Below, piece by piece: positions 4,025-35,007 of a stretch of 40,551 nucleotides of DNA. The stretch is taken from sequence record DRR378314_1077; one strand, given 5' to 3'. A program made the translations under genes and the position numbers. The notes beneath the pieces are model-generated. The model ran no database searches. It was not told the DNA's origin and saw nothing but the letters and a program-made list of their open reading frames with translations. Positions within the stretch are counted from its first letter, which is position 1. Every line of letters begins with the position of its first letter.

Positions 4025-4949
4025 GGGAAAACTGTTCTTACTTGTCAGCGACAGCCTACTTCAGGATTTCGTCGATGGTCGCCTTGACCCGGAAATGGCC
4101 GCGAGAGTTGAAGGGTTAATTTGCTTTGATTCAGATCTTCGAGCGAAAGCGCAGGATTATGCAGCTCTGAATGGTCAGATTAAGAACTTTCATGCATACC
4201 CTGAAAATTCAAAAATTCCAGTTGGGGTTGAAAAGCTGGCGTCTGAACTAAATGACGAACTGAGAAAAAACAAAGCACTCCGAAGTGAAGATAAACCAGC
4301 AGTATATCAAGCTTTTAGGAAAATGGCTGCGGCTTGTGTGGTGGTCGTTTTAGGGGCGCTAGGCGGTTATTTCTATGGTCCAGGTATTCAGGATGCTGGT
4401 CGGGAAACTGCACAAGTCACGTCGCTACCAACCAGTGAAGGTATCGAACATACCATCGGCACGCGAACCGTGGTTTCTATGTCTCAAGAAGGGCAGGTAC
4501 AGGAAACCTTGCCCAACATCGTTTCCGCCCTGCTGTTCTCTTTGAAGAGTTTGAATTTTCAGCTGATTGAAACACGTATTTCAAACAATGCGGACAGCGA
4601 AATGGTGCAGGTAGAGTTTCAAACGGACACGGGAGAGCGTGTAATTTTGAAACATCTAAACCAGCAAGACGGTCAGAATGAACCGATTGTCGCGCGCCAG
4701 GAAGGAAATGAGTCGATGTTATCCTGGCAGGTAAATGGTCGTTCATTCACCATGTTGGGTGAGATGGATAAAAAGACATTGCTTGAGGTTGGCCATAAAT
4801 TAATTGAGCAATTGTCTGGAAACCAGCTGCCAGAGCTTGGTGAAAGCTATCAGAGGCAAGACGCGAACAGTGATTTTGACACAAAAGTGCAAACTGAAAA
4901 CTCTGCCCCGACAGAGCCTAAACCCATTGCGGGGGATGGCTCAATCTAA
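4017..4949 (+). CDS. Transmembrane anti-sigma factor (PrtR/RsiW-like)
   Basis: Overlaps the sigma gene by 8 nt. N-terminal 'LQDFVDGRLD' anti-sigma-type motif, one TM helix (MAAACVVVVLGALGGYFYG) and a predicted periplasmic C-terminal domain. Confidence 0.82.
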   Translation: MSEGKLFLLVSDSLLQDFVDGRLDPEMAARVEGLICFDSDLRAKAQDYAALNGQIKNFHAYPENSKIPVGVEKLASELNDELRKNKALRSEDKPAVYQAFRKMAAACVVVVLGALGGYFYGPGIQDAGRETAQVTSLPTSEGIEHTIGTRTVVSMSQEGQVQETLPNIVSALLFSLKSLNFQLIETRISNNADSEMVQVEFQTDTGERVILKHLNQQDGQNEPIVARQEGNESMLSWQVNGRSFTMLGEMDKKTLLEVGHKLIEQLSGNQLPELGESYQRQDANSDFDTKVQTENSAPTEPKPIAGDGSI

Positions 4950-4991
4950 AAAATGATCACCATAAATATCAATGTCCGAAAGGATTGAAAT

Positions 4992-6563
4992 ATGAACGGA
5001 AAGCCTAATCGGCGCGCGTTGTTGAAAGTACTTCTGGCAGGCAGTGGGTTGTCGCTGCTACCAATAGGATATACTCTCGCGTTGGAGAAATCAGTAAATC
5101 CGGAAGCCAGCTTTGATGAGCTGAGCCCAATCCGCTTGGCACAAGCGTTGGCGAATAAGCCTTATGACGATGACGCTGTTGATTTGCCCAAATCCTTGAT
5201 TGAAATGAATTACAATTCCTACCAAGCAATTCGACCTAAAGGAAAAGGTTTTCTATGGTCAAAGGACAAATCGGCATTTCGCGTGGATATGTTCCATGTC
5301 GGCCGAGGGTTCAGAAAACCAGTAAATTTATATGTTGTGGATAACGGAACGGTAAAGCCAGTCGAATATACGCCCAGTCTATTTGATTATGGGTCAGAAG
5401 ATATTCGCAGTGCAACGGCACAATTGGAAAACGGATTTGCGGGTTTTCGGGCCTATTATACCGCCGATTGGGAACGTGACTTCATTGCTTTTCTAGGGGC
5501 CAGTTATTTTCGTGCTGTTGGTGGTAATAAGCAATTTGGACTATCTGCCCGTGGTCTGGCCGTGAATACCAGCTTATTTGGAAAAGAGGAATTCCCGCGG
5601 TTCACAACATTTTGGCTGGAAAAACCGGCTGCAAAAAATCACAACTTAATTGTACATGCCTTGTTGGATAGCAAATCTGTAACAGGTGCCTATCAGTTTA
5701 CCATTCGCCCGGGTAACACGACGACCATTGATGTGGTCGCAACCCTATTTGGCCGGGAAGAAGTTCAGGAACTCGGAATTGCACCCATTACATCCATGTA
5801 TTTTTTCGGTGAAAATGATTATCGCAACAGGGATGATTTTCGCCCCGAAGTTCACGATTCAGACGGGCTCTATATGGTAAAGGGGAACGGAGAGCGTGCA
5901 TGGCGTCCTGTGACCAATCCCACATCGCCCAGAGCAAGTTTCTTTAGCGATCAAAGCCCAATAGGATTTGGCCTGAGCCAACGTGATCGTGATTTTGACC
6001 ATTACCAGGATGATGGTGTTTATTATGATCGACGCCCTAATCTGTGGGTTGAACCCGTTGGGGATTGGGGGGAGGGAGATGTTGTCTTAGTGGAACTCCC
6101 TGCTGGTGATGAAACCCAAGACAACCTTGGGGCTTACTGGCGCCCGGCTGAGAGTTTGAAGCCAGGGCAAAAACGCGAGTTCCGGTACAAATTGCATTTT
6201 GGTGCTGAACACCCGTCAGCACCTGCTGATTTGGCTTGGGTAGTTGCAACCAGAACGGGCGTTGGCGGTGTGCCGGGATTGAAGACGGATAATCCGGGCC
6301 GTAAGTTCGTTGTGGATTTTGAGGGTGGTGATTTGCCGATGCTTTCGAAGGATGCATCAATAAAACCGCAAGTCTCTGTTTCTTCCGGAAAAATATCTGA
6401 GCTTGCGGTACGTGAAAACCTCGAAACCGGTGGCTTACGAATGAATTTTGATTTTTTCCCGGATGGAAAAGACGATGTTGAAATACGCGCCTTTCTCACA
6501 CTTGATGGACGCCTACTGACCGAAACGTGGCTCTATCGGTGGAACTCAGAAGGATCGGCTTGA
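4992..6563 (+). CDS. opgD: Glucan biosynthesis protein, OpgD/OpgG family (GH186), OpgD-like with Tat signal
   Basis: Twin-arginine signal NRRALLK; motifs FLGASYFRA, GLSARGLA, EEFPRF, APITSMYFFG, RPEVHDSDGL, FGLSQRDR and ETWLYRW. The Tat signal and 'ATRTGxGG' favour OpgD over OpgG. Confidence 0.9.
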   Translation: MNGKPNRRALLKVLLAGSGLSLLPIGYTLALEKSVNPEASFDELSPIRLAQALANKPYDDDAVDLPKSLIEMNYNSYQAIRPKGKGFLWSKDKSAFRVDMFHVGRGFRKPVNLYVVDNGTVKPVEYTPSLFDYGSEDIRSATAQLENGFAGFRAYYTADWERDFIAFLGASYFRAVGGNKQFGLSARGLAVNTSLFGKEEFPRFTTFWLEKPAAKNHNLIVHALLDSKSVTGAYQFTIRPGNTTTIDVVATLFGREEVQELGIAPITSMYFFGENDYRNRDDFRPEVHDSDGLYMVKGNGERAWRPVTNPTSPRASFFSDQSPIGFGLSQRDRDFDHYQDDGVYYDRRPNLWVEPVGDWGEGDVVLVELPAGDETQDNLGAYWRPAESLKPGQKREFRYKLHFGAEHPSAPADLAWVVATRTGVGGVPGLKTDNPGRKFVVDFEGGDLPMLSKDASIKPQVSVSSGKISELAVRENLETGGLRMNFDFFPDGKDDVEIRAFLTLDGRLLTETWLYRWNSEGSA

Positions 6564-22325: not shown

Positions 22326-24497
22326 ATGGAAATCACGGTTAATTTTCTGGACAATCTTCGGCTTGAAGCCAAGTTTGATGATTTTACGATAACGACCGAT
22401 CAGCCTATTCGCTATAAAGGGGACGGAACAGCACCAAGTCCTTTTGATTACTTTCTTGCCTCCTCCGCACTATGTGCCGCTTATTTTATAAAGGTCTATT
22501 GTCTGTCGCGGAACATCCCCACCGATGATATTCGGGTGTCCCAGAATAATATTATCGATCCGGAAAACAGGTATAATCAAACCTTTCAAATTCAGGTCGA
22601 ATTGCCGTCCAGTATTTCAGAACGTGATCGGATCGGTATCTTAAGGTCAGCCGATCGCTGCACGGTAAAAAAGGTAATTCAGCAATCGCCTAACTTTAAA
22701 ATTGAATCTGTTGAGGATTTGGATGATGCCTCGTTGTTGGACAGCTTCGAAGGCGATGGTAACACGTTGATTATGGGCAAAGATCTGCCGTTGGAACAAA
22801 CAATCGCCAATATGACCTCCATCCTCGCGGACATTGGCGTGAAAATCGAAGTCGCATCATGGCGCAATATTATACCAAATGTTTGGTCACTTCATATCCG
22901 TGAAGCGGCATCGCCAATGTGTTTTACCAACGGCAAAGGCGCGACAAGAGAAAGTGCACTTTGCTCTGCCTTGGGTGAATATATTGAACGCATGAACTGC
23001 AATTTCTTCTACAATGATTATTATTTTGGGGAAGAAATCGCCAACAGTGACTTTGTACATTACCCGAACGAAAAATGGTTTAAACCGGGCGCAGATGACG
23101 CCTTGCCTTCAGGGTTGATGGATGAACGGTGTCTACAGCTTTACAATCCCGATGGTGATTTAAAAGCATCTCACCTGATTGATACAAATTCTGGCCGTAT
23201 AGATCGTGGGATTTGTGCGTTGCCTTTCACGCGGTGTTCAGATCAGGAAACGATTTATTTTCCTTCGAACCTTTTGGAAAACCTTTTCGTTAGCAATGGT
23301 ATGAGTGCGGGAAATAATCTGTATGAAGCAAAGGTTCAGTGCTTATCCGAAATTTTTGAGCGGGCAATCAAACGGCAAATAATTGAGCAGGAGATTGTCC
23401 TGCCGGATGTGCCAAAGGAGGTTCTCGCCAAATATCCTGGGGTTTTGGCGGGCATAGAAGAACTTGAAAACAAAGGCTTTCCCGTTTTGGTCAAGGACGC
23501 TTCCTTGGGAGGAAAATTCCCGGTAATGAGCGTGACTTTGATGAACCCAAAGACAGGAGGCGTTTTTGCATCTTTCGGTTCACATCCCAGTTTTGAGGTC
23601 GCTCTGGAGCGCTCTCTCACCGAATTATTGCAGGGCCGTAGTTTCGAAGGCTTAAACGACGTTCCGCCTCCGACTTTTAACAGTCAGGCGGTTAGCGAGC
23701 CAAATAATTTTGTCGAGCATTTCATTGACTCAACGGGGCTTGTGTCTTGGAAGTTCTTTAGCCAAAAACAGGATTATGAGTTTTGTGAGTGGGACTTTAG
23801 CGGCACGACAGAGCAGGAGAATGAACGGTTAATGAATATCCTTAGAGACCTAGGCAAGGAGGCCTATGTTGCAACCTATGAGGAATTCGGTGCAGCGGCA
23901 TGCAGAATTTTGGTGCCGGGTTATTCAGAAATTTATCTTCCAGAAGATTTGATCTGGGATAACACCAATAAAGCGTTGATGTTCCGCGAAGATATTTTAA
24001 ACATCCATTCACTGTCAGATGAGGAATTGGAAGACCTGCTTGAACGTTTCGACGACATGCAACTGGATCATTACACGCTAATTTCGGATCTCATCGGGAT
24101 CGTGTTCGATGAAAACACAGTCTGGGGGAAACTGGATGTCGGTGAGCTGAAGATATTGACCTATCTCGCTTTGGGCCAGTTTGAGGAAGCGAAAGAGATC
24201 ATTATTGATTTCTTGAATTTCAACGACAATACGGTAGAGCGGATTTTGTTCTATCGGGCATTAAGTGCAGTCGTTGATATTGCAGTTGATGAAGCATTGG
24301 ACCTGGAAGATTACATTCCCAATTTGACCAGAATGTATGGGGCCGACCACATGCAGAGTGCTGTCGGATCTGTGACCGGTGCCGTTAAATTTGCCGGTTT
24401 AACAAAGACAAGCATGAAGCTGGAAGGCCTAGACAAGCACCTTAGATTGATTGAAAGTTATAAAAAACTCCACACAGCAAGGCAGATGAAGAGATAG
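22326..24497 (+). CDS. ycaO: OsmC-domain/YcaO-domain fusion protein
   Basis: N-terminal ~130 aa OsmC-like (TDQP, PSPFDYFLASSALCA, RCTVKK), followed by E. coli-type YcaO (GKDLPLE, FTNGKG, SALGEYIER, SNGMSAGN, CLSEIFER, ALERSLTELLQGR, HFIDS). Confidence 0.92.
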   Translation: MEITVNFLDNLRLEAKFDDFTITTDQPIRYKGDGTAPSPFDYFLASSALCAAYFIKVYCLSRNIPTDDIRVSQNNIIDPENRYNQTFQIQVELPSSISERDRIGILRSADRCTVKKVIQQSPNFKIESVEDLDDASLLDSFEGDGNTLIMGKDLPLEQTIANMTSILADIGVKIEVASWRNIIPNVWSLHIREAASPMCFTNGKGATRESALCSALGEYIERMNCNFFYNDYYFGEEIANSDFVHYPNEKWFKPGADDALPSGLMDERCLQLYNPDGDLKASHLIDTNSGRIDRGICALPFTRCSDQETIYFPSNLLENLFVSNGMSAGNNLYEAKVQCLSEIFERAIKRQIIEQEIVLPDVPKEVLAKYPGVLAGIEELENKGFPVLVKDASLGGKFPVMSVTLMNPKTGGVFASFGSHPSFEVALERSLTELLQGRSFEGLNDVPPPTFNSQAVSEPNNFVEHFIDSTGLVSWKFFSQKQDYEFCEWDFSGTTEQENERLMNILRDLGKEAYVATYEEFGAAACRILVPGYSEIYLPEDLIWDNTNKALMFREDILNIHSLSDEELEDLLERFDDMQLDHYTLISDLIGIVFDENTVWGKLDVGELKILTYLALGQFEEAKEIIIDFLNFNDNTVERILFYRALSAVVDIAVDEALDLEDYIPNLTRMYGADHMQSAVGSVTGAVKFAGLTKTSMKLEGLDKHLRLIESYKKLHTARQMKR

Positions 24498-27751: not shown

Positions 27752-27964
27752 TTAAGCGGTAACGATTTGTGCCGGGCTTCCAGTCGTCGTTTTAGGGCGC
27801 TCCCACAGAAATTCATGAACTGAGAACACGACTGTCTGGACAATCGGTTCCAGCAGGCCAATCCCCAACGCTGCCATCAAATTTCCGGTAAGAGTATAGG
27901 CCACAGCAGTTGCCACAATGATATGGAGTGCTCCGTAACTAGCGGTTTTTAATGCTAACCTCAT
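27752..27964 (-). CDS. Small DUF2061-family membrane protein
   Basis: 70 aa: KTASYG.LHI.VA..VAY.LTG...ALGIGLLEP.VQT...HE..W; AAGGAAG RBS; immediately upstream of katG on the same strand. Confidence 0.82.
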   Translation of the reverse strand: MRLALKTASYGALHIIVATAVAYTLTGNLMAALGIGLLEPIVQTVVFSVHEFLWERPKTTTGSPAQIVTA

Positions 27965-28034
27965 GACAGCTTCCTTGACGCTTTGAATGTTTATATTAGC
28001 TATGAAGGAAATGTAGGTGAGAATTTACGTTAAG

Positions 28035-28075
28035 TAAAATTGAATAAATCTTATTTCATGTTCAATTTTATTGAA
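28035..28075. promoter_or_regulatory. Candidate LysR/OxyR-type operator upstream of DUF2061-katG
   Basis: Perfect inverted repeat TAAAATTGAA-N16-TTCAATTTTA (28035-28070), overlapping the palindrome TTCAAT-TTT-ATTGAA (28061-28075), which contains T-N11-A. Confidence 0.45.
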
Positions 28076-28189
28076 TAATGAAATTTTGCGGACTTCTTAG
28101 CGTGGGAATGCGAGCTGCCTCTTGAGGATCGTAAGAAAGCTTATGTTTGGGTATTGAGTTTTTGACGACTTTCATGCATTGATCTTACA

Positions 28190-28314
28190 GGGAACGGCGA
28201 TGGCGTCGCCAGCGGTTTGAACGCACCCGATAATCCATCCTGAACGCCGGGATTTTACTTTGCCGATGCCACGGTAAGGGAAATCCTTTTTCCTTGGCAC
28301 GGCCGTTAGAAGGA
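28190..28314 (+). ncRNA. Candidate structured cis-regulatory 5' leader (riboswitch-like) of the creatinase gene
   Basis: GC-rich stretch within an AT-rich spacer, with several hairpins, a repeated TGAACGC loop sequence and mutually exclusive pairings next to the RBS (see findings). No known RNA family recognised. Confidence 0.4.
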
Positions 28315-28318
28315 AAAT

Positions 28319-29524
28319 ATGATGGATCGTCCGGAATTTTATCGTTTTCATCAGGGGGACAAGACACTTCCCTTTGCCCCAGCGGAATATGAAGCCCGAT
28401 TAAAAGGGCTGCGCCGCGAAATGGACCGTACAGGTGTGGATGCATGCGTTTTCACCTCCATGCAGAATATCGCGTATTATTCGGGGTTTTTATATTGCAC
28501 TTTTGGGCGGCCATACGGACTTGTTGTCACAGCGTCACAGAGCGTTACTATCAGCGCTGGGATTGACTGCGCGCAGCCCTGGAGGCGGTGTTATGGCGAT
28601 AACATCACCTACACAGATTGGCAGCGGAATAATTATTGGCGCGCGATCTGCTCTGTGACCGGTGAGAATAAAGTTATCGGATTTGAAGGGGATCACCTAA
28701 CTCTTCAACAAAAAAATTTATTGGACAGCTTTTTAAGTCCGGCTAAGGCTATCGATATGGCGACGATGACCATGCGCCAGCGAATGTATAAATCAAGTGC
28801 TGAAATTAAATTGATCAGACAAGGGGCTGCTGTTGCTGATGCTGGCGGGTATGCGATCAGGGATGCAATTAAGCCGGAGGCTAGAGAGATAGATGTAGCG
28901 ATGGCTGGGCGGAATGCAATGGAGCTGGAAATCGCACGCCGCTTTCCGGATGCTGAATACCGAGATACATGGGTTTGGTTTCAATCCGGAATTAATACGG
29001 ATGGTGCCCATAATCCGGTTACTGCCCGGCAATTGGAACGGGGAGACATTCTCAGCTTAAATACCTTTCCCATGATTTCCGGTTATTATACAGCGCTTGA
29101 ACGTACCTTATTCGTTCAAGAGGTTGACCCTGCCAGTTTAAAGATTTGGGAAACCAACGTCGCCGCTCATGAATATGGTATCAGCCTGCTGAAACCAGGG
29201 GTTTCCTGCGCTGAAGTGACAGAGAAGATCAACTGTTTCTTCGCGGAGCGGGATCTCTTGCAATATCGAACATTCGGGTATGGCCATTCTTTTGGTGTCC
29301 TGTCTCATTACTACGGCCGCGAAGCGGGTCTGGAGCTGCGCGAGGATGTAGATACGGTTTTAGAGCCGGGAATGGTGATTTCCATGGAACCGATGTTGAC
29401 CATTCCTGATGGGCAGCCTGGCGGGGGTGGTTACCGGGAACATGACATTCTTGTCATCATCGAAGACGGCAACGAGAATATAACTGGCTATCCTTATGGT
29501 CCTGAATTTAATTTGGTGGGTTAG
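28319..29524 (+). CDS. Creatinase (creatine amidinohydrolase), M24/pita-bread fold
   Basis: Motifs YYSGFLYC.FGRPYG, QPWRR, YTDWQR, WFQSGINTDGAHNP, FPMI.GYYTALERT and YGHSFGVLSHYYGREAGLELRED; AGAAGGA RBS. Confidence 0.9.
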   Translation: MMDRPEFYRFHQGDKTLPFAPAEYEARLKGLRREMDRTGVDACVFTSMQNIAYYSGFLYCTFGRPYGLVVTASQSVTISAGIDCAQPWRRCYGDNITYTDWQRNNYWRAICSVTGENKVIGFEGDHLTLQQKNLLDSFLSPAKAIDMATMTMRQRMYKSSAEIKLIRQGAAVADAGGYAIRDAIKPEAREIDVAMAGRNAMELEIARRFPDAEYRDTWVWFQSGINTDGAHNPVTARQLERGDILSLNTFPMISGYYTALERTLFVQEVDPASLKIWETNVAAHEYGISLLKPGVSCAEVTEKINCFFAERDLLQYRTFGYGHSFGVLSHYYGREAGLELREDVDTVLEPGMVISMEPMLTIPDGQPGGGGYREHDILVIIEDGNENITGYPYGPEFNLVG

Positions 29525-29564: not shown

Positions 29565-30446
29565 TTATGTGCCAGTTATGGTTAGCCAATCAGCAAAAAT
29601 TCGGGCTTTTTCTGACGCTTTTTGATGAATGTTTAAGTAAAAGCCCATGGGGGCCGGGATGCTATCGGGGACCAGTTGAATCAACTGTTCTTCCTGGATC
29701 AGTTTTCTGACTAGCCGGTCCCACCCCAAAATGGCCCCCACGTCATCTTGTGCGGCTTGCAGGGCAATCATGTAGTTGTTGAGGAAAAAGCCACGTCCTC
29801 TGGGCCCGTCGTAATTCAGTTCAAGAAGCCAGTCATTCCAGGTTGTCCAGCCTGTCTCATCATTCTGGACATGAATTAAGGGGACTTTCTGGAGGTCTTT
29901 AACAGTGTGGATGTCATGGTCTTGAGCAAATTGCCGGGTGCCCAAAGCAATGATATTACCTTGGAAGAGCCTCCGCTCATCACTTCCATCGTCCATTGGG
30001 TTGCTATACTGAACGCTTAGATCGCACCGGGTTGTCATTTCCGAAACATCGCTGACGATTTGCGAAATAGTGATATCTGGATGTGTTTTCCAAAATTGTG
30101 AAATCTTTGGAGTGAGCCAGAATGAACTCACAGCCGTTGTTGTTCGAATGGTGACATCAACTGTTTCTGGCTGATCCCGGAGCAGGATCACCGTGTCAGA
30201 GATTGTCTCAAACCCTCTTTGCAACGCAAAAAGGAGGAAGGCGCCTTTTTCGGTAAGCTCGACGCCGCGGTTGCTTCGCAGGAAAAGGTTGCATCCTAGA
30301 TCGATCTCAAGTGCTTTAATCCTGTGGCTGATAGCGGCAGGCGTGACGTTCATCTCCTGCGCTGCATTTTTAAAGCTAAGATTTCTGGCAGCCGCCTCGA
30401 AACAGACCAATGCATTTATGGATGCGAGATCGTAGGGTCGCTTCAT
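29565..30446 (-). CDS. LysR-family transcriptional regulator (GcvA-like)
   Basis: NALVCFEAAARNLSFKNAAQEMNVTPAAISHRIKALE HTH and GcvA-type substrate domain; divergent from the Rieske operon. Confidence 0.95.
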   Translation of the reverse strand: MKRPYDLASINALVCFEAAARNLSFKNAAQEMNVTPAAISHRIKALEIDLGCNLFLRSNRGVELTEKGAFLLFALQRGFETISDTVILLRDQPETVDVTIRTTTAVSSFWLTPKISQFWKTHPDITISQIVSDVSEMTTRCDLSVQYSNPMDDGSDERRLFQGNIIALGTRQFAQDHDIHTVKDLQKVPLIHVQNDETGWTTWNDWLLELNYDGPRGRGFFLNNYMIALQAAQDDVGAILGWDRLVRKLIQEEQLIQLVPDSIPAPMGFYLNIHQKASEKARIFADWLTITGT

Positions 30447-30516: not shown

Positions 30517-30603
30517 CCAGGTTGAAAATAAATACTATTGTCAAATTATGCATAGGCGTCAAAACTTTCTGTAACTGAAATCTAAAATAGATGGAACTTG
30601 GCC

Positions 30604-31845
30604 ATGACGGTTGTTTCTCATTCTATCCTTGAAATGTTGGCTCGCCGAAGATCTGGGTTTTCCTTCGAACGGGACTTTTATAACTCTCAGTTCGTTTACG
30701 ATCTGGATTTGGAACATATTTTTTACAAGCAATGGCTTTTTGCCATACCTGCCTGTGAGCTTTCTAAAGCGGGTGAATATGTCCTGCATCAGGTTGGCGC
30801 ATTTTCAGTAATCCTGGTCCGAGGAGATGACGGAAAAATTAGAGCCTTCCATAACACCTGTCGGCATCGGGGGTCGGTGTTATGTAAATCCAGGAAAGGC
30901 CGAAACCCTAAACTTGTCTGCCCCTATCATCAATGGACCTATGATTTAGAAGGGGCACTTGTTTGGGCGCGGGATATGGGTGAGAGTTTTGAGCCTGGTG
31001 ACTATGGGTTAAAGTCGGTCCACTGTCGCAATATTCACGGTCTAATTTATCTTTGTCTGGCTGAGGAGGCTCCTGACATCGAGCCCTTTGCTGCAGCGGC
31101 CTCACACTATCTGGCGCCGCATGATCTGGAAAACTCCAAGGTCGCATATGAAAGTTCAATTATCGAAAATGGGAATTGGAAACTTGTCTGGGAGAATAAT
31201 CGAGAATGTTACCATTGCGGAGGTAATCATCCATCTCTTTGCCGAACCTTTCCCGAAGATGCGCGTTTGATCGGCAATATTGGCGACGGGTCCATGGCTC
31301 CACTATTGGAGCAGCATGTGCAGCGATGTGAAGCCGTGGGCGCGCCCTCAACTTTGACAACAGGCGAGGAGGGAGATTGGCGATTTGTACGTCCACCGCT
31401 TTTAGGCGCAGGTGAGAGTTATACGCTGGACACAAAAGCTGCTGTTGCAATTCCGAATTCCTCCATTCCTTTTAAAGATGCAGGCTCGCTTCTCTATTTT
31501 AATTTACCGACAACATGGAACCATTTTCTGGCAGATCATTCCCTTGTTTTCCGGGTGTCACCGATCAGTCCGACGGAAACCGAAGTCTGTACTAAATGGC
31601 TGGTCCATAAAGATGCCGAGGAGGGGCGGGACTATGACCTGAACCGCCTTACCGAAGTGTGGCTGACAACCAACGCTGAAGATAAAGAGGTGGTTGAGAA
31701 TAATCAGAAGGGGATTCAATCACCTGCTTATGAAGTTGGTCCTTATTCTGAAATTCAGGAGGGTGGTGTTATTCAGTTCACAGATTGGTATGTTAAATCT
31801 TTGAGTGAAGCACTTAGCCTCTCAACCCTGGTTGCGGCGGAGTAG
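30604..31845 (+). CDS. Rieske non-heme iron N-demethylating oxygenase, alpha subunit (Stc2/HpbB/GbcA family; probably proline betaine demethylase)
   Basis: Rieske CRHRG...CPYHQW; mononuclear Fe ligands NWKLVWENNRECYHC..NH and ED; KWLVHKDAEEG.DYDL. ATG at 30604 (TTG at 30598 possible). Confidence 0.9.
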   Translation: MTVVSHSILEMLARRRSGFSFERDFYNSQFVYDLDLEHIFYKQWLFAIPACELSKAGEYVLHQVGAFSVILVRGDDGKIRAFHNTCRHRGSVLCKSRKGRNPKLVCPYHQWTYDLEGALVWARDMGESFEPGDYGLKSVHCRNIHGLIYLCLAEEAPDIEPFAAAASHYLAPHDLENSKVAYESSIIENGNWKLVWENNRECYHCGGNHPSLCRTFPEDARLIGNIGDGSMAPLLEQHVQRCEAVGAPSTLTTGEEGDWRFVRPPLLGAGESYTLDTKAAVAIPNSSIPFKDAGSLLYFNLPTTWNHFLADHSLVFRVSPISPTETEVCTKWLVHKDAEEGRDYDLNRLTEVWLTTNAEDKEVVENNQKGIQSPAYEVGPYSEIQEGGVIQFTDWYVKSLSEALSLSTLVAAE

Positions 31846-31848
31846 GTT

Positions 31849-32916
31849 ATGTCGGGGCTCGAAAAACCAACGCTCGCCTTTTGGCGGGATATAGAATTTC
31901 TGGAATGCGTTTCATTCCTGCCAGAAGCACCGAATGTCATGACATTCTCTTTTCAGCCAATGTCGGGTGCTTTGTTTAGTTATGATCCGGGCCAGTTCCT
32001 GACGCTGGAACTACCCGTGGCAGATGGCCCCCTTTATCGGACCTTTACCATTTCGTCGTCGCCAACGCGGCCGACGTCGTTATCCATTACCGTGAAAGCT
32101 CAAGCTGATTCCATTGGAACCCGCTGGATGCTAGACAATTTACGGCCCGGAATGCAGTTAAAAGTCAGAGGCCCAGCCGGTGATTTTTCCCTCGTTCATA
32201 ATCCCTCTGATCGATATTTGTTTGTTTCTGCGGGATCTGGTGTGACACCGATGATGTCCATGACAACATATCTTTATGATGCGGGTCGTGACCCTGACAT
32301 TGTTTTCGTAAATTGTGCTCGCCGTCCCTCAGATATTATTTTTAAGGAAGCGCTGGAGCATATGGCTACGCGCATCACTGGAATTGATTTGAAATGGGTG
32401 GTGGAGGAAGCTGACCCTTTCAAACCTTGGACTGGTTATCTCGGAACCTTCAATCAGTTAATGCTGGGTTTGATGGCCCAGGACTATTTGGAGCGGGAAG
32501 TTTTCTGCTGTGGACCGGAGCCGTTCATGCAGACTGTCCGAGAGGTTCTCATCGGTTTGGGTTTTGATATGGATCACTATCATCAGGAGAGTTTCCATCC
32601 GCCGGCGCCAGACCATCAGCAACTTGCAGATGATGTGGTGCCTGATGAGAAAACCAATGCAGTCGTTGATTTTTTGTCTTCCGGCATTGTTGCCAACTGT
32701 GCCCAAACGGATACCATTCTTGCTGCGGCCCGGAATGCAGGGTTGGTGATCCCATATGGTTGCTCCATGGGAATTTGTGGCACTTGTAAGGTTCGTAAAT
32801 TGGAGGGCCAGGTTCACATGGTGCATAACGGTGGAATTACGGATGAGGATATTGAAGAGGGGTATATTTTATCCTGTTGTTCCAATCCGATCGGACATGT
32901 CAAGATCGAGGCATGA
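31849..32916 (+). CDS. FAD/NAD-binding reductase with C-terminal 2Fe-2S domain (GbcB/Stc3-4-like partner of the Rieske oxygenase)
   Basis: Motifs PGQFLT, RTFTISS, AGSGVTP, CCGPEPFM, ESF and C..GICGTC...C ferredoxin. Confidence 0.92.
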   Translation: MSGLEKPTLAFWRDIEFLECVSFLPEAPNVMTFSFQPMSGALFSYDPGQFLTLELPVADGPLYRTFTISSSPTRPTSLSITVKAQADSIGTRWMLDNLRPGMQLKVRGPAGDFSLVHNPSDRYLFVSAGSGVTPMMSMTTYLYDAGRDPDIVFVNCARRPSDIIFKEALEHMATRITGIDLKWVVEEADPFKPWTGYLGTFNQLMLGLMAQDYLEREVFCCGPEPFMQTVREVLIGLGFDMDHYHQESFHPPAPDHQQLADDVVPDEKTNAVVDFLSSGIVANCAQTDTILAAARNAGLVIPYGCSMGICGTCKVRKLEGQVHMVHNGGITDEDIEEGYILSCCSNPIGHVKIEA

Positions 32917-32970
32917 TCGAACCTTTAGGAGTTGCAGTTCCAATAACGAAGCCTGAAACAGAGGTTACAT

Positions 32971-35007
32971 ATGTCTTCTGATCCAATTCTCCAGCCCTAT
33001 CAGCTAAAGCATTTAACATTGCGAAACCGCATTATCATGACATCTCATGAACCGGCCTATCCTGAAGACGGTCTGCCAAAAGAAAGGTACAGAGCCTATC
33101 ATGTGGAGCGGGCAAAAGGGGGCGTTGCAATGACCATGACGGCTGGATCGGCCGCAGTTTCCAAGGATAGTCCCCCGGTTTTCAACAATCTGCTGGTGTA
33201 CAAGGATGAAGTCGTCCCATGGATGAAAGATCTGACTGATGCCATCCATGAGCAGGGGGCGGCAGTTATGATCCAACTCACCCATTTGGGGCGGCGAACG
33301 CGATGGGATAAAGAATATTGGCTTCCTGTTGTCTCTGCATCCCATGAGCGAGAGGCTGCGCATCGCGCATTCCCAAAGAAGGCAGAAGACTGGGATGTGG
33401 AGAGAATAATCAAGGATTATGCAGATGCTGCTGAACGGATGAAGGCCGGGGGCATGGATGGAATTGAATTGCAGGCCTATGGACATTTGCTTGATCAATT
33501 CTGGTCACCGCTCACCAACGATTTGGAGGGGCCTTATGGCGGATCTTTGGAAAACCGATTGAAGCTGACATTTAAAGTGTTGACTGAAATCCGCAAACGA
33601 GTGGGCCCGGATTTTATTGTTGGTATTCGATATACTGGCGATGAAGACTTGGCGGGAGGATTGAGTAAAGAGGATGGCCTTTCCATTTCAAAGCGGTTGA
33701 AAGACAGTGGCCAAATTGATTTTTTGAATGTAATTCGGGGACATATCGATACGGATGCTGGTTTGACGGATGTGATCCCAATTCAAGGCATGGCAAATTC
33801 ACCCCATCTGGATTTTGCGGGGGAAATTCGGGCGGCAACTGATTTCCCCACATTTCATGCCGCTAAGATTCCAGATGTTGCTACGGCTCGCCATGCTATC
33901 GCCTCTGGCAAGGTGGATATGGTTGGAATGACCCGGGCACATATGACAGATCCACATATTGTTCGTAAAATAATCGAGAAAAGAGAAGAGGATATTCGAC
34001 CATGTGTGGGGGCTAATTATTGCCTGGATCGGATTTATCAGGGCGGGGCAGCTCATTGTATTCACAATCCGGCAACGGGGCGTGAGACCGCCATCCCTCA
34101 TATTATGGAGAAGGCTGCGAAGCGTAAAAAAGTTGTCGTTATTGGTGCCGGTCCTGGTGGGCTTGAAGCTGCTCGCGTCGCGGGAGAACGGGGCCATGAT
34201 GTTGTGGTTCATGAAGCGGCAAGTGATCCCGGGGGTCAGGTCCGTTTGACGGCGCAAAGCACTCGACGCAAGGAAATGATCAGTATAATTGATTGGCGTG
34301 CTAATCAGTGCCTGTCATATGGTGTTCAATTTCACTTCAACAGTTGGGCCGAAATGGACACAGTGCGTGCGGAAAACCCTGATGTGGTCATTGTTGCAAC
34401 CGGGGGATTACCGCATACAGAGGTTCTATCTTATGGAAATGATCTGGTTGTTTCTTCCTGGGACATTATTTCTGGAGATGTGAAGCCGGGTAACACTGTC
34501 CTGATTTATGATGATGCGGGCGATCATGCTGCATTGCAAGCCGCCGAAATTGTCGCGCAAGCGGGTGCAAAGACTGAAATCATGACGCCGGATCGGTCAT
34601 TTGCGCCGGAAGTGATGGCAATGAACCTGGTGCCTTATATGCGAAGCCTTCAGAAACTCGATACGACATTTACTGTGACCTACCGGCTTATGGCCGTTGA
34701 AAAGCAGGGGAACCAGTTGATTGCTAAAGTTGGCAGTGATTATGGTGGCGTTTATCAGGAACGGAACGTTGATCAAATCGTTGTCAATCATGGCACCCTT
34801 CCTCTTGATGAGCTGTATTTTGATCTTCGCGGCGGTTCCACCAATCTGGGGGAGGTGGATTATGAGGCGTTCATCAACGGCAAGCCGCAAACGGTTGTTC
34901 GTAACGAAAAAGGATCTTATCAGTTGTTTCGAATTGGGGATGCTGTTGCAGCCCGGAACACACATGCGGCAATCTATGATGCGGTGCGGCTAATGATGGT
35001 TGTCTAG
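32971..35007 (+). CDS. stcD: NADH:flavin oxidoreductase, N-methylproline demethylase StcD/HpbA-like
   Basis: 678 aa; DP.LQPYQLKHLTLRNRI..T.HEPAYPEDG.PKERYRAY, TAGSAAVSKDSPPVFNN, CVGANYC...C Fe-S motif, VIGAGPGG and RIGDAVAARN. Closely resembles rhizobial StcD as recalled. Confidence 0.88.
   Translation: MSSDPILQPYQLKHLTLRNRIIMTSHEPAYPEDGLPKERYRAYHVERAKGGVAMTMTAGSAAVSKDSPPVFNNLLVYKDEVVPWMKDLTDAIHEQGAAVMIQLTHLGRRTRWDKEYWLPVVSASHEREAAHRAFPKKAEDWDVERIIKDYADAAERMKAGGMDGIELQAYGHLLDQFWSPLTNDLEGPYGGSLENRLKLTFKVLTEIRKRVGPDFIVGIRYTGDEDLAGGLSKEDGLSISKRLKDSGQIDFLNVIRGHIDTDAGLTDVIPIQGMANSPHLDFAGEIRAATDFPTFHAAKIPDVATARHAIASGKVDMVGMTRAHMTDPHIVRKIIEKREEDIRPCVGANYCLDRIYQGGAAHCIHNPATGRETAIPHIMEKAAKRKKVVVIGAGPGGLEAARVAGERGHDVVVHEAASDPGGQVRLTAQSTRRKEMISIIDWRANQCLSYGVQFHFNSWAEMDTVRAENPDVVIVATGGLPHTEVLSYGNDLVVSSWDIISGDVKPGNTVLIYDDAGDHAALQAAEIVAQAGAKTEIMTPDRSFAPEVMAMNLVPYMRSLQKLDTTFTVTYRLMAVEKQGNQLIAKVGSDYGGVYQERNVDQIVVNHGTLPLDELYFDLRGGSTNLGEVDYEAFINGKPQTVVRNEKGSYQLFRIGDAVAARNTHAAIYDAVRLMMVV

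Follow-up and report, generated by a model that had tools for sequence, protein, structure and literature searches.

What is the GC-rich segment in front of a creatinase gene in sequence record DRR378314_1077 for? In the analysed stretch of this record (the window, 40,551 nucleotides (nt) long), the segment lies in a 354-nt gap between a gene for a DUF2061 membrane protein on the minus strand and a 401-codon open reading frame (ORF) on the plus strand. A preliminary description made from the window alone had proposed an RNA switch that responds to creatine or a related guanidino compound through two hairpins with the same loop. The elements it listed are all found where it had placed them, and the leader is indeed richer in G and C than the preceding spacer (0.568 in 28190-28307 versus 0.342 in 27965-28189). 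Comparison with relatives shows that the segment belongs to a real, widely conserved and uncatalogued structured mRNA leader of about 70 nt, in which a helix P1 surrounds the hairpins P2 and P3 and is followed by a hairpin P4 (Table 1). We regard it as probable that 28190-28253 is the sensor of a so far undescribed class of riboswitch, one that binds creatine or guanidinoacetate and activates translation. Small-molecule binding, the ligand, its pocket and the direction of control are what we infer from the observed conservation, covariation, gene association and competing complementarities.

The product of the ORF behind the leader contains the Pfam domains Creatinase_N and Peptidase_M24 and aligns over the full length with the solved creatine amidinohydrolases 7yto, 1chm and 1kp0 (E = 2e-151 to 4e-145), and no NCBIfam model reaches its cut-off on the ORF. 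Full-length similarity together with the Creatinase_N and M24 domains, the marks of EC 3.5.3.3, identifies the gene as a true creatinase homologue. A search of one genome per species returned 585 creatinase relatives, and the best 80 of these (78-84% identical) were kept. Among them are Rhodobacterales and several Thalassospira, and some are unclassified metagenome genomes of Alphaproteobacteria or Pseudomonadota. BLAST of the window spacer against the 80 loci finds a match just upstream of creatinase in nearly all of them. A pattern search recovers the P2 and P4 blocks upstream of creatinase in all 81 sources (the 80 loci and the window), where the P2 core is conserved within GGCGATGGCGTCGCC and the P4 core within (A/G)TCCTG-N-ACGCCGGGA(T/C). 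The covariance model R1, built from a MAFFT alignment of 30 leaders, yields 82 matches at E <= 0.001 in the 81 sources, with a single match in the window and one additional leader copy in L073, as well as two weak, chance-level matches.

The refined model R2 matches all five genomes behind chosen loci. In the order to which one Rhodobacterales locus belongs, it finds the motif in 103 of 151 sampled genomes, mostly with one copy each. Of 151 genomes sampled from the class, four are matched, and two of these four belong to the same order as the order sample. A single match is found among 39 genomes in the order of G198, which shares synteny with the window to either side of creatinase and has a leader similar to the window's. 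Creatinase occurs in 110 genomes of the order sample; when the tables are compared by reading, 100 genomes have both gene and motif, 10 have creatinase only and three have the motif only. Nine of the 10 creatinase-only genomes were rechecked with filters off, and four of them contain a weaker match (29.5-37.4 bits). The other five and the second paralogue in G006 show no motif even with filters off, and the creatinases of these five genomes share no more than 43-58% identity with the window's. The motif occurs sporadically outside Rhodobacterales and is located there with the creatinase gene, which suggests that motif and gene travel together between lineages. Remnants are also seen. A degenerate motif (32.3 bits) precedes a creatinase fragment with a stop codon at L122 301-367 (the G108 case), and an intact motif is fused to an internally deleted creatinase remnant at L139 3012-3078 on the minus strand (the G118 case).

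The architecture of the leader emerges from folds of the 82 leaders in which only the two hairpin cores were constrained. Most leaders form P1 around P2 and a variable P3, some miss P3, and one subgroup has an extra hairpin ahead of P4. RNAalifold recovers only the two conserved hairpins from a plain MAFFT alignment because P1 and P3 are misaligned in it, and the four-helix structure was then set by hand and refined with covariance models. In the window, P1 is weak, with three base pairs that are perhaps extended by 28185-87/28231-33. Of the cells of the modelled helices, 88.9% are paired in the MAFFT alignment of 30 leaders, versus 32-50% with slid partners, and 93.2% versus 30-63% in the model-fitted alignment of 82. 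In both alignments, P1 as well as P3 has all four modelled pairs changed on both sides. Both-side changes fill 189 cells of the model-fitted alignment, versus 63.8 +/- 8.4 after shuffling and with none of 500 shuffles reaching the real count, though such counts are inflated because the sequences are related (mostly one order) and alignment A3 was fitted to the structure.

A pair table free of alignment leads to the same helices. It covers 134 unique leaders with positions counted from the cores, and the leaders were picked for both exact cores, so that core identity holds by construction. The outer pairs of P2 are CG in 130 leaders, UA in two, UG in one and AU in one at the first position, GC in 111, AU in 16 and GU in seven at the second, and paired in 130 of 134 at the third. 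Those of P4 are UA in 127, UG in four and CG in three, then CG in 133 and UA in one, then GC in 58, AU in 36 and GU in 13, the last amounting to 107 of 134 paired. Arms can diverge strongly, as in AAUGAU..GUCAUU (L137) and GAAGAU..GUCUUC (L140) for P2, and GUUCUG..CGGAAC (L129). The variable N within the P4 core is A in 98 leaders, U in 25 and C in 11. For P1, the duplex between the 14 nt before P2 and the interval after P2 has an energy of -10.82 kcal/mol, versus -9.33 +/- 0.22 for permuted and -9.25 +/- 0.20 for shuffled flanks, and none of 200 permuted or 100 shuffled controls reaches the real value. What the comparison reveals is a conserved 5' leader that folds into covarying stems and holds unpaired bases that do not change, as generally expected of a riboswitch. 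Conservation and covariation among orthologues, whose absence the preliminary description had named as speaking against a switch, are both present.

The pair table also bears on whether the blocks act as RNA at all. Both cores hold invariant U.G pairs, and the covarying positions contain 29 G.U or U.G combinations versus seven A.C or C.A (summed from the 134-leader table). Such pairs and such a bias fit RNA of the plus strand and not duplex DNA. The conserved blocks might otherwise be read as DNA operators, given the near-palindrome GGCGAT..GTCGCC and the adjacent LysR-family gene, or the AUG in the invariant P2 core as the start of a regulatory leader peptide. Such a reading has only a slight chance of being correct, since operators would explain neither these U.G and G.U pairs nor the long-range covariation of P1. 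The leader peptide was rejected because frames from the P2-core ATG range from 3 to more than 97 codons and no conserved peptide extends past MAS. For the folded RNA, the P2 segment GGCGU is exactly complementary to ACGCC of P4, and the two hairpins may make a kissing-loop contact that would form the ligand pocket, an attractive hypothesis.

The twin loops that first drew attention to the leader turn out to be a peculiarity of few sequences. The heptamer TGAACGC does occur twice in the window (28218-28224 and 28241-28247), and the preliminary description had assigned the first copy to a hairpin of its own at 28213-28229. This segment is the variable stem P3, and the CGC in question is the 3' strand of the stem, not a loop. 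Only 2 of 134 unique leaders, those of the window and of L079, have another GAACGC between the cores, so twin loops are not a feature of the element. Guanidine-II riboswitches (mini-ykkC, RF01068) consist of two hairpins, each with an ACGR tetraloop, and serve as small translational ON switches of genes for guanidine detoxification or assimilation. The leader resembles them in the ACG-containing loop, in the inferred loop-loop contact and in what would be translational ON control by a guanidino-type ligand. It differs by a P1/P2/P3 junction that guanidine-II lacks, by the genes it precedes (creatinase, the amidinotransferase homologue discussed below, one EamA transporter and one short-chain dehydrogenase) and by the absence of any match to the RF01068 model in the window or the orthologous loci. 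The argument from two identical loops is not supported, as only one of the two hairpins it relied on is conserved and the loops of P2 and P4 differ. P2 has GGC (or AUGGCGU) and P4 has N-ACGC, and neither corresponds to an ACGR tetraloop. The leader is not a guanidine-II member. A divergent switch of the guanidine-II type, with two same-loop hairpins dimerizing around a guanidino group, would make sense of the repeated heptamer and of the ACG within the P4 loop. It is nevertheless contradicted by the comparative data and very improbable, given the rarity of the twin, the five-base loop of P4, the unrelated loop of P2 and the lack of an Rfam match even at E <= 10.

The Rfam scan suggested as a check in the preliminary description finds no riboswitch family. 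With Rfam 15, nothing reaches the gathering score over the whole window, the three matches at E <= 10 over 27960-28400 are at chance level and to unrelated families, and 10 orthologous loci give no match to a guanidine riboswitch or any other family at E <= 1. Guanidine-IV riboswitches (the mepA motif) have two unlike hairpins with complementary loops that kiss upon ligand binding, and they act through a transcription terminator. The creatinase leader shares with them the complementary P2 and P4 loops, with the kissing hypothetical here. It differs in its lack of an Rfam match, in phylum, in associated genes, in the extra P1/P3 junction and in a platform that is predicted to be translational with an anti-Shine-Dalgarno (anti-SD) overlap rather than a terminator. 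Literature searches, which left out motif-discovery supplements, retrieved no published description of a creatine or creatinase riboswitch or of this leader. The main text of PMC5737381 and of two 2026 bioRxiv preprints contains no mention of creatin- or amidinotransferase, and their supplements could list the motif. The creatinase regulators that these searches found described are all proteins, namely CahR, of the GATR/AraC family, in Pseudomonas putida and AmtR in Corynebacterium glutamicum (PMC12623156). The regulated function, induction of creatine catabolism, would be the same, but these are DNA-binding proteins acting on transcription, unlike a structured mRNA leader. The wider proposal of the preliminary description, an undescribed cis-acting RNA switch before creatinase with a likely link to creatine or a guanidino compound, fits the conservation, the covariation, the absence from Rfam and the gene context.

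The gene context is the main guide to the ligand. Creatinase follows the motif in all 80 fetched loci and in 30 loci from the order sample, and in nearly all loci examined overall. Five genomes carry two copies of the motif. Both copies precede creatinase paralogues in one of them. In the other four (G001, G066, G114, G133), the gene behind the second copy encodes a homologue of L-arginine:glycine amidinotransferase with 373 aa (E = 5e-84 to 1jdx). The leader hence recurs before functionally linked genes in many species, another property of riboswitches. Creatinase acts on creatine, and the amidinotransferase family interconverts arginine plus glycine and ornithine plus guanidinoacetate. The two enzymes share N-amidino-glycine chemistry, which makes creatine and guanidinoacetate the leading candidates; judged by the controlled genes only, creatine or guanidinoacetate, its unmethylated relative, is the most likely ligand. 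In L134 (3018-4258 on the plus strand; ~4391-5775 on the minus strand) and L118, the genes for creatinase and the amidinotransferase homologue are neighbours that converge on each other, both preceded by a leader of their own, and L134 has a MarR-family gene upstream.

A riboswitch for another ligand, such as free guanidine, urea, sarcosine, glycine, creatinine, 3-guanidinopropionate, taurocyamine or a nitrogen-status signal, is unlikely, even though the assignment draws on gene context alone. The amidinotransferase family accepts several guanidino donors and acceptors, and single copies of the motif precede an EamA-family transporter and a short-chain dehydrogenase (motif-only cases), all of which would leave room for other compounds. 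However, the motif stands before creatinase, with creatine as its substrate, in more than 100 genomes, the sensing of a product would be unusual for the ON switch of a catabolic gene, and the genes typical of guanidine riboswitches (efflux pumps, guanidine carboxylase) never follow the motif in the loci examined. At L124 3001-3090 on the minus strand, an intact leader is followed by the short-chain dehydrogenase and then by a beta-lactamase-family/META-domain protein, and a creatinase query found none in that genome.

The leader could also be the target of an RNA-binding protein, for example an autoregulating enzyme or a dedicated regulator, instead of a small-molecule sensor; protein binding was the alternative proposed in the preliminary description. 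Two invariant loops on covarying stems would suit protein contacts equally well, and the distribution is narrow. Yet such a protein would also be needed wherever the motif has moved with creatinase (Thalassospira, the lineage of the window, G290), no conserved partner gene travels with the motif, and the motif also precedes an unrelated enzyme with a chemically related substrate. A protein site is as improbable, in our view, as a switch for another ligand. After creatinase itself, no operon partner is conserved; judged by ORFs, about 35 of 79 loci lack a close same-strand ORF and the others are very variable in length.

How would a creatine or guanidinoacetate sensor control translation? The proposed mechanism begins with P1, which would enclose the invariant P2 and the variable P3 and be joined by a short linker to the invariant P4. 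The loops of P2 and P4 would touch and create the ligand pocket, and ligand binding would hold P4 closed. Because an alternative helix makes use of the same 3' arm, closure of P4 would free the ribosome-binding site and switch translation on. Apart from the helices in Table 1, complementary segments in the window are GCCGATGCCA (28262-28271) with TGGCACGGC (28295-28303), and AACGGC (28193-28198) with GCCGTT (28302-28307); AGAAGGA lies at 28308-28314 and the ATG at 28319. The second of these pairs had been proposed as a competing helix in the preliminary description. The complementarity does exist in the window, but it is not kept in L135, the closest syntenic relative (from reading the alignment with this one relative).

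The free minimum-energy fold of the window leader (-51.5 kcal/mol) contains helix Hb, eight pairs between anti-SD and Shine-Dalgarno (SD) sequences and the 28233-39/28321-27 helix. Forcing P1, P2 and P4 yields a fold of -49.4 kcal/mol in which Hc is present, the AUG is unpaired and the SD retains only an interrupted contact of five pairs. Hb shares 28250-28253 with the 3' arm of P4 and sequesters the purine run AAGGGAAA. Hc shares 28262-86 with Hb and 28288-95 with the anti-SD:SD helix, and captures the anti-SD. The window might thus use a relay, in which P4 would exclude Hb (28250-28286), Hb would exclude Hc (28262-28303), and Hc would exclude the anti-SD:SD helix. Read by eye in the alignment, L135 has Hb, Hc and anti-SD made from different bases, and in its Hc (UUGCUGC/GCAGCAA) both bases of two pairs differ from those in the window.

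Many relatives with short leaders would manage without a relay, as the 3' arm of P4 and the pyrimidine run behind it could pair directly with the SD. Leaders were grouped by the spacing from P4 to the start codon into short (<=32 nt), mid-length (33-60 nt) and longer ones. In short leaders, the duplex of the P4 3' arm and the next nine bases with the ribosome-binding site has -13.4 kcal/mol versus -7.1 when shuffled, and all 26 best duplexes use at least 3 nt of the arm. Mid-length leaders show -9.6 versus -6.7, with at least 3 nt of the arm used in 32 of 38. In total, 58 of the 64 leaders in these two groups have an anti-SD helix that includes part of the P4 3' arm. The 58 longer leaders show no direct complementarity between P4 arm and ribosome site (-6.8 versus -6.2), and neither does the window. 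The leaders thus show, in these models, a platform that competes with the sensor fold, as known for riboswitches, with a relay of exclusive helices in the window. The short-leader, mid-length and relay designs all predict that closing P4 opens the ribosome site, and the ON switch that would result suits a catabolic gene. Ensemble modelling agrees with this direction only weakly: forcing the aptamer raises the modelled accessibility of the ribosome site in 43 of 122 leaders (increase above 0.05), and by 0.15 in the window. P4 and the U-rich tail behind it were also considered as a terminator and rejected, as the stem is short and the tail is not U-rich where GGGACCUUUCGGGG follows P4. The pyrimidine run after P4 is better explained as an anti-SD because of the duplex energies between the P4 arm and the ribosome site.

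Besides the inflated covariation counts, several points weigh against a ligand-controlled ON switch. The segment 28185-28325 folds at -45.6 kcal/mol with z = -1.32, and 18 of 200 shuffles equal it; from the window sequence alone the structure is not beyond chance, whereas in comparison with relatives it is. No variation occurs in the two loops or in the inner pairs of P2 and P4, which leaves covariation silent on the closing of the hairpins and on the kissing contact, and inside P4 a U-C replaces the U.G in 5 of 134 leaders. The aptamer-forced fold of the window is 2.1 kcal/mol less stable than the free fold. The modelled shift in accessibility is small (mean +0.027), with 60 of 122 leaders staying within +/-0.05 and 19 falling. 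The amidinotransferase link comes from four genomes only, and the single copies before the transporter and the dehydrogenase count on this side as well. A palindrome CTTGCC-N15/16-GGCAAG covers the putative -35 box, ~11-31 nt before the leader, in 11 of 134 leaders (L048, L057, L061, L062, L066, L076, L096, L100, L112, L116, L140). Taken together, the adjacent LysR gene, the palindromes in the spacer and those over the -35 box mean that protein regulators may act too, or instead.

The signals at the DNA level deserve a closer description. The candidate promoter of Table 1 would place a putative transcription start near 28189-28191, at the foot of P1. A consensus promoter scan of the window did not report the 28154-28183 site. 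In 43 of 134 leaders, a CTTGCC box precedes the P2 core by 45-49 nt, and the window has TTGAGT at the same distance. The palindromic form of this box hints at a protein operator atop the RNA switch in some Rhodobacterales. The spacer that separates the divergently oriented genes for DUF2061 and creatinase contains, at 28030-28087, AT-rich inverted repeats that overlap one another (for example TTAAGTAAAATTGAA / TTCAATTTTATTGAA). A DNA-binding protein could use these repeats as its operator, and one candidate is the LysR-family regulator whose gene lies next to creatinase on the opposite strand.

Table 1. Features of the creatinase leader, its expression platform and the adjoining genes, in coordinates of the window
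Feature	Coordinates	Strand	Sequence or pairing	Basis or remark
DUF2061 membrane-protein gene	27752..27964	-
Possible promoter	28154..28183	+	-35-like TTGAGT (28154-28159); extended -10-like TGcATTGAT (28175-28183)	sequence reading
P1	28190..28228	+	GGG 28190-28192 with CCC 28226-28228	encloses P2 and P3; constrained folds, covariation, duplex energies
P2 hairpin	28196..28210	+	GGCGAUGGCGUCGCC; GGCGAT/GTCGCC, GGC loop, U.G closing pair	core GAUGGCGUC invariant
P3 hairpin	28212..28224	+	GCG 28212-14 with CGC 28222-24	short, variable; all four modelled pairs vary on both sides
P4 hairpin	28237..28253	+	AUCCUG-AACGC-CGGGAU	core CUG-N-ACGCC invariant; outer pairs covary
Linker and P4 5' arm with start-codon region	28233..28327	+	AUCCAUC (28233-28239) with GAUGGAU (28321-28327)	paired in free fold, open if aptamer forced
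Helix Hb	28250..28286	+	GGAUUUUACUUUGCCG with CGGUAAGGGAAAUCC	in free minimum-energy fold; inverted repeat I5
Helix Hc	28262..28303	+	GCCG-A-UGCCA with UGGCA-CGGC; inner AAGGGAAA with UUUUUCCUU	formed when aptamer forced
Helix Hd (anti-SD:SD)	28288..28317	+	UUUUCCUU (28288-28295) with AAGGAAAA (28310-28317)	eight contiguous pairs in free fold; inverted repeat I2
Creatinase (creatine amidinohydrolase) gene, 401 aa	28319..29524	+		Pfam domains and full-length similarity to solved structures
LysR-family regulator gene	29565..30446	-

The wider surroundings of the creatinase gene are those of methylated-amine breakdown. Beside the LysR gene, 30598-35007 on the plus strand encodes an Old-Yellow-Enzyme/flavin oxidoreductase and two proteins related to GbcA and GbcB, the subunits of glycine betaine monooxygenase, neither of which reaches its equivalog cut-off. 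The substrate of these proteins may be a related N-methyl compound instead of glycine betaine. Elsewhere in the window and unrelated to the leader, 22326-24497 on the plus strand encodes a 723-aa protein with an N-terminal OsmC-like domain joined to YcaO and YcaO_C.

Creatinase leaders may broaden what natural RNAs are known to sense. There is about an even chance that the element is the first natural RNA sensor for a guanidino acid, a new junction aptamer with two invariant loops that is found in roughly two thirds of marine Rhodobacterales and has spread with creatinase. If confirmed, the riboswitch class would bind a type of ligand new for natural RNA, a guanidino acid instead of free guanidine. 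It would also provide a ready-made sensor of creatine or guanidinoacetate of interest for biosensing; creatinase itself is already used in clinical creatinine assays. The association with amidinotransferase further suggests an undescribed bacterial route involving guanidinoacetate. Confirmation would also account for the control of creatinase in marine bacteria of an abundant group. If the proposal is true, an RNA would gate a widespread harvest of nitrogen by ocean bacteria from creatine derived from animals or plankton.

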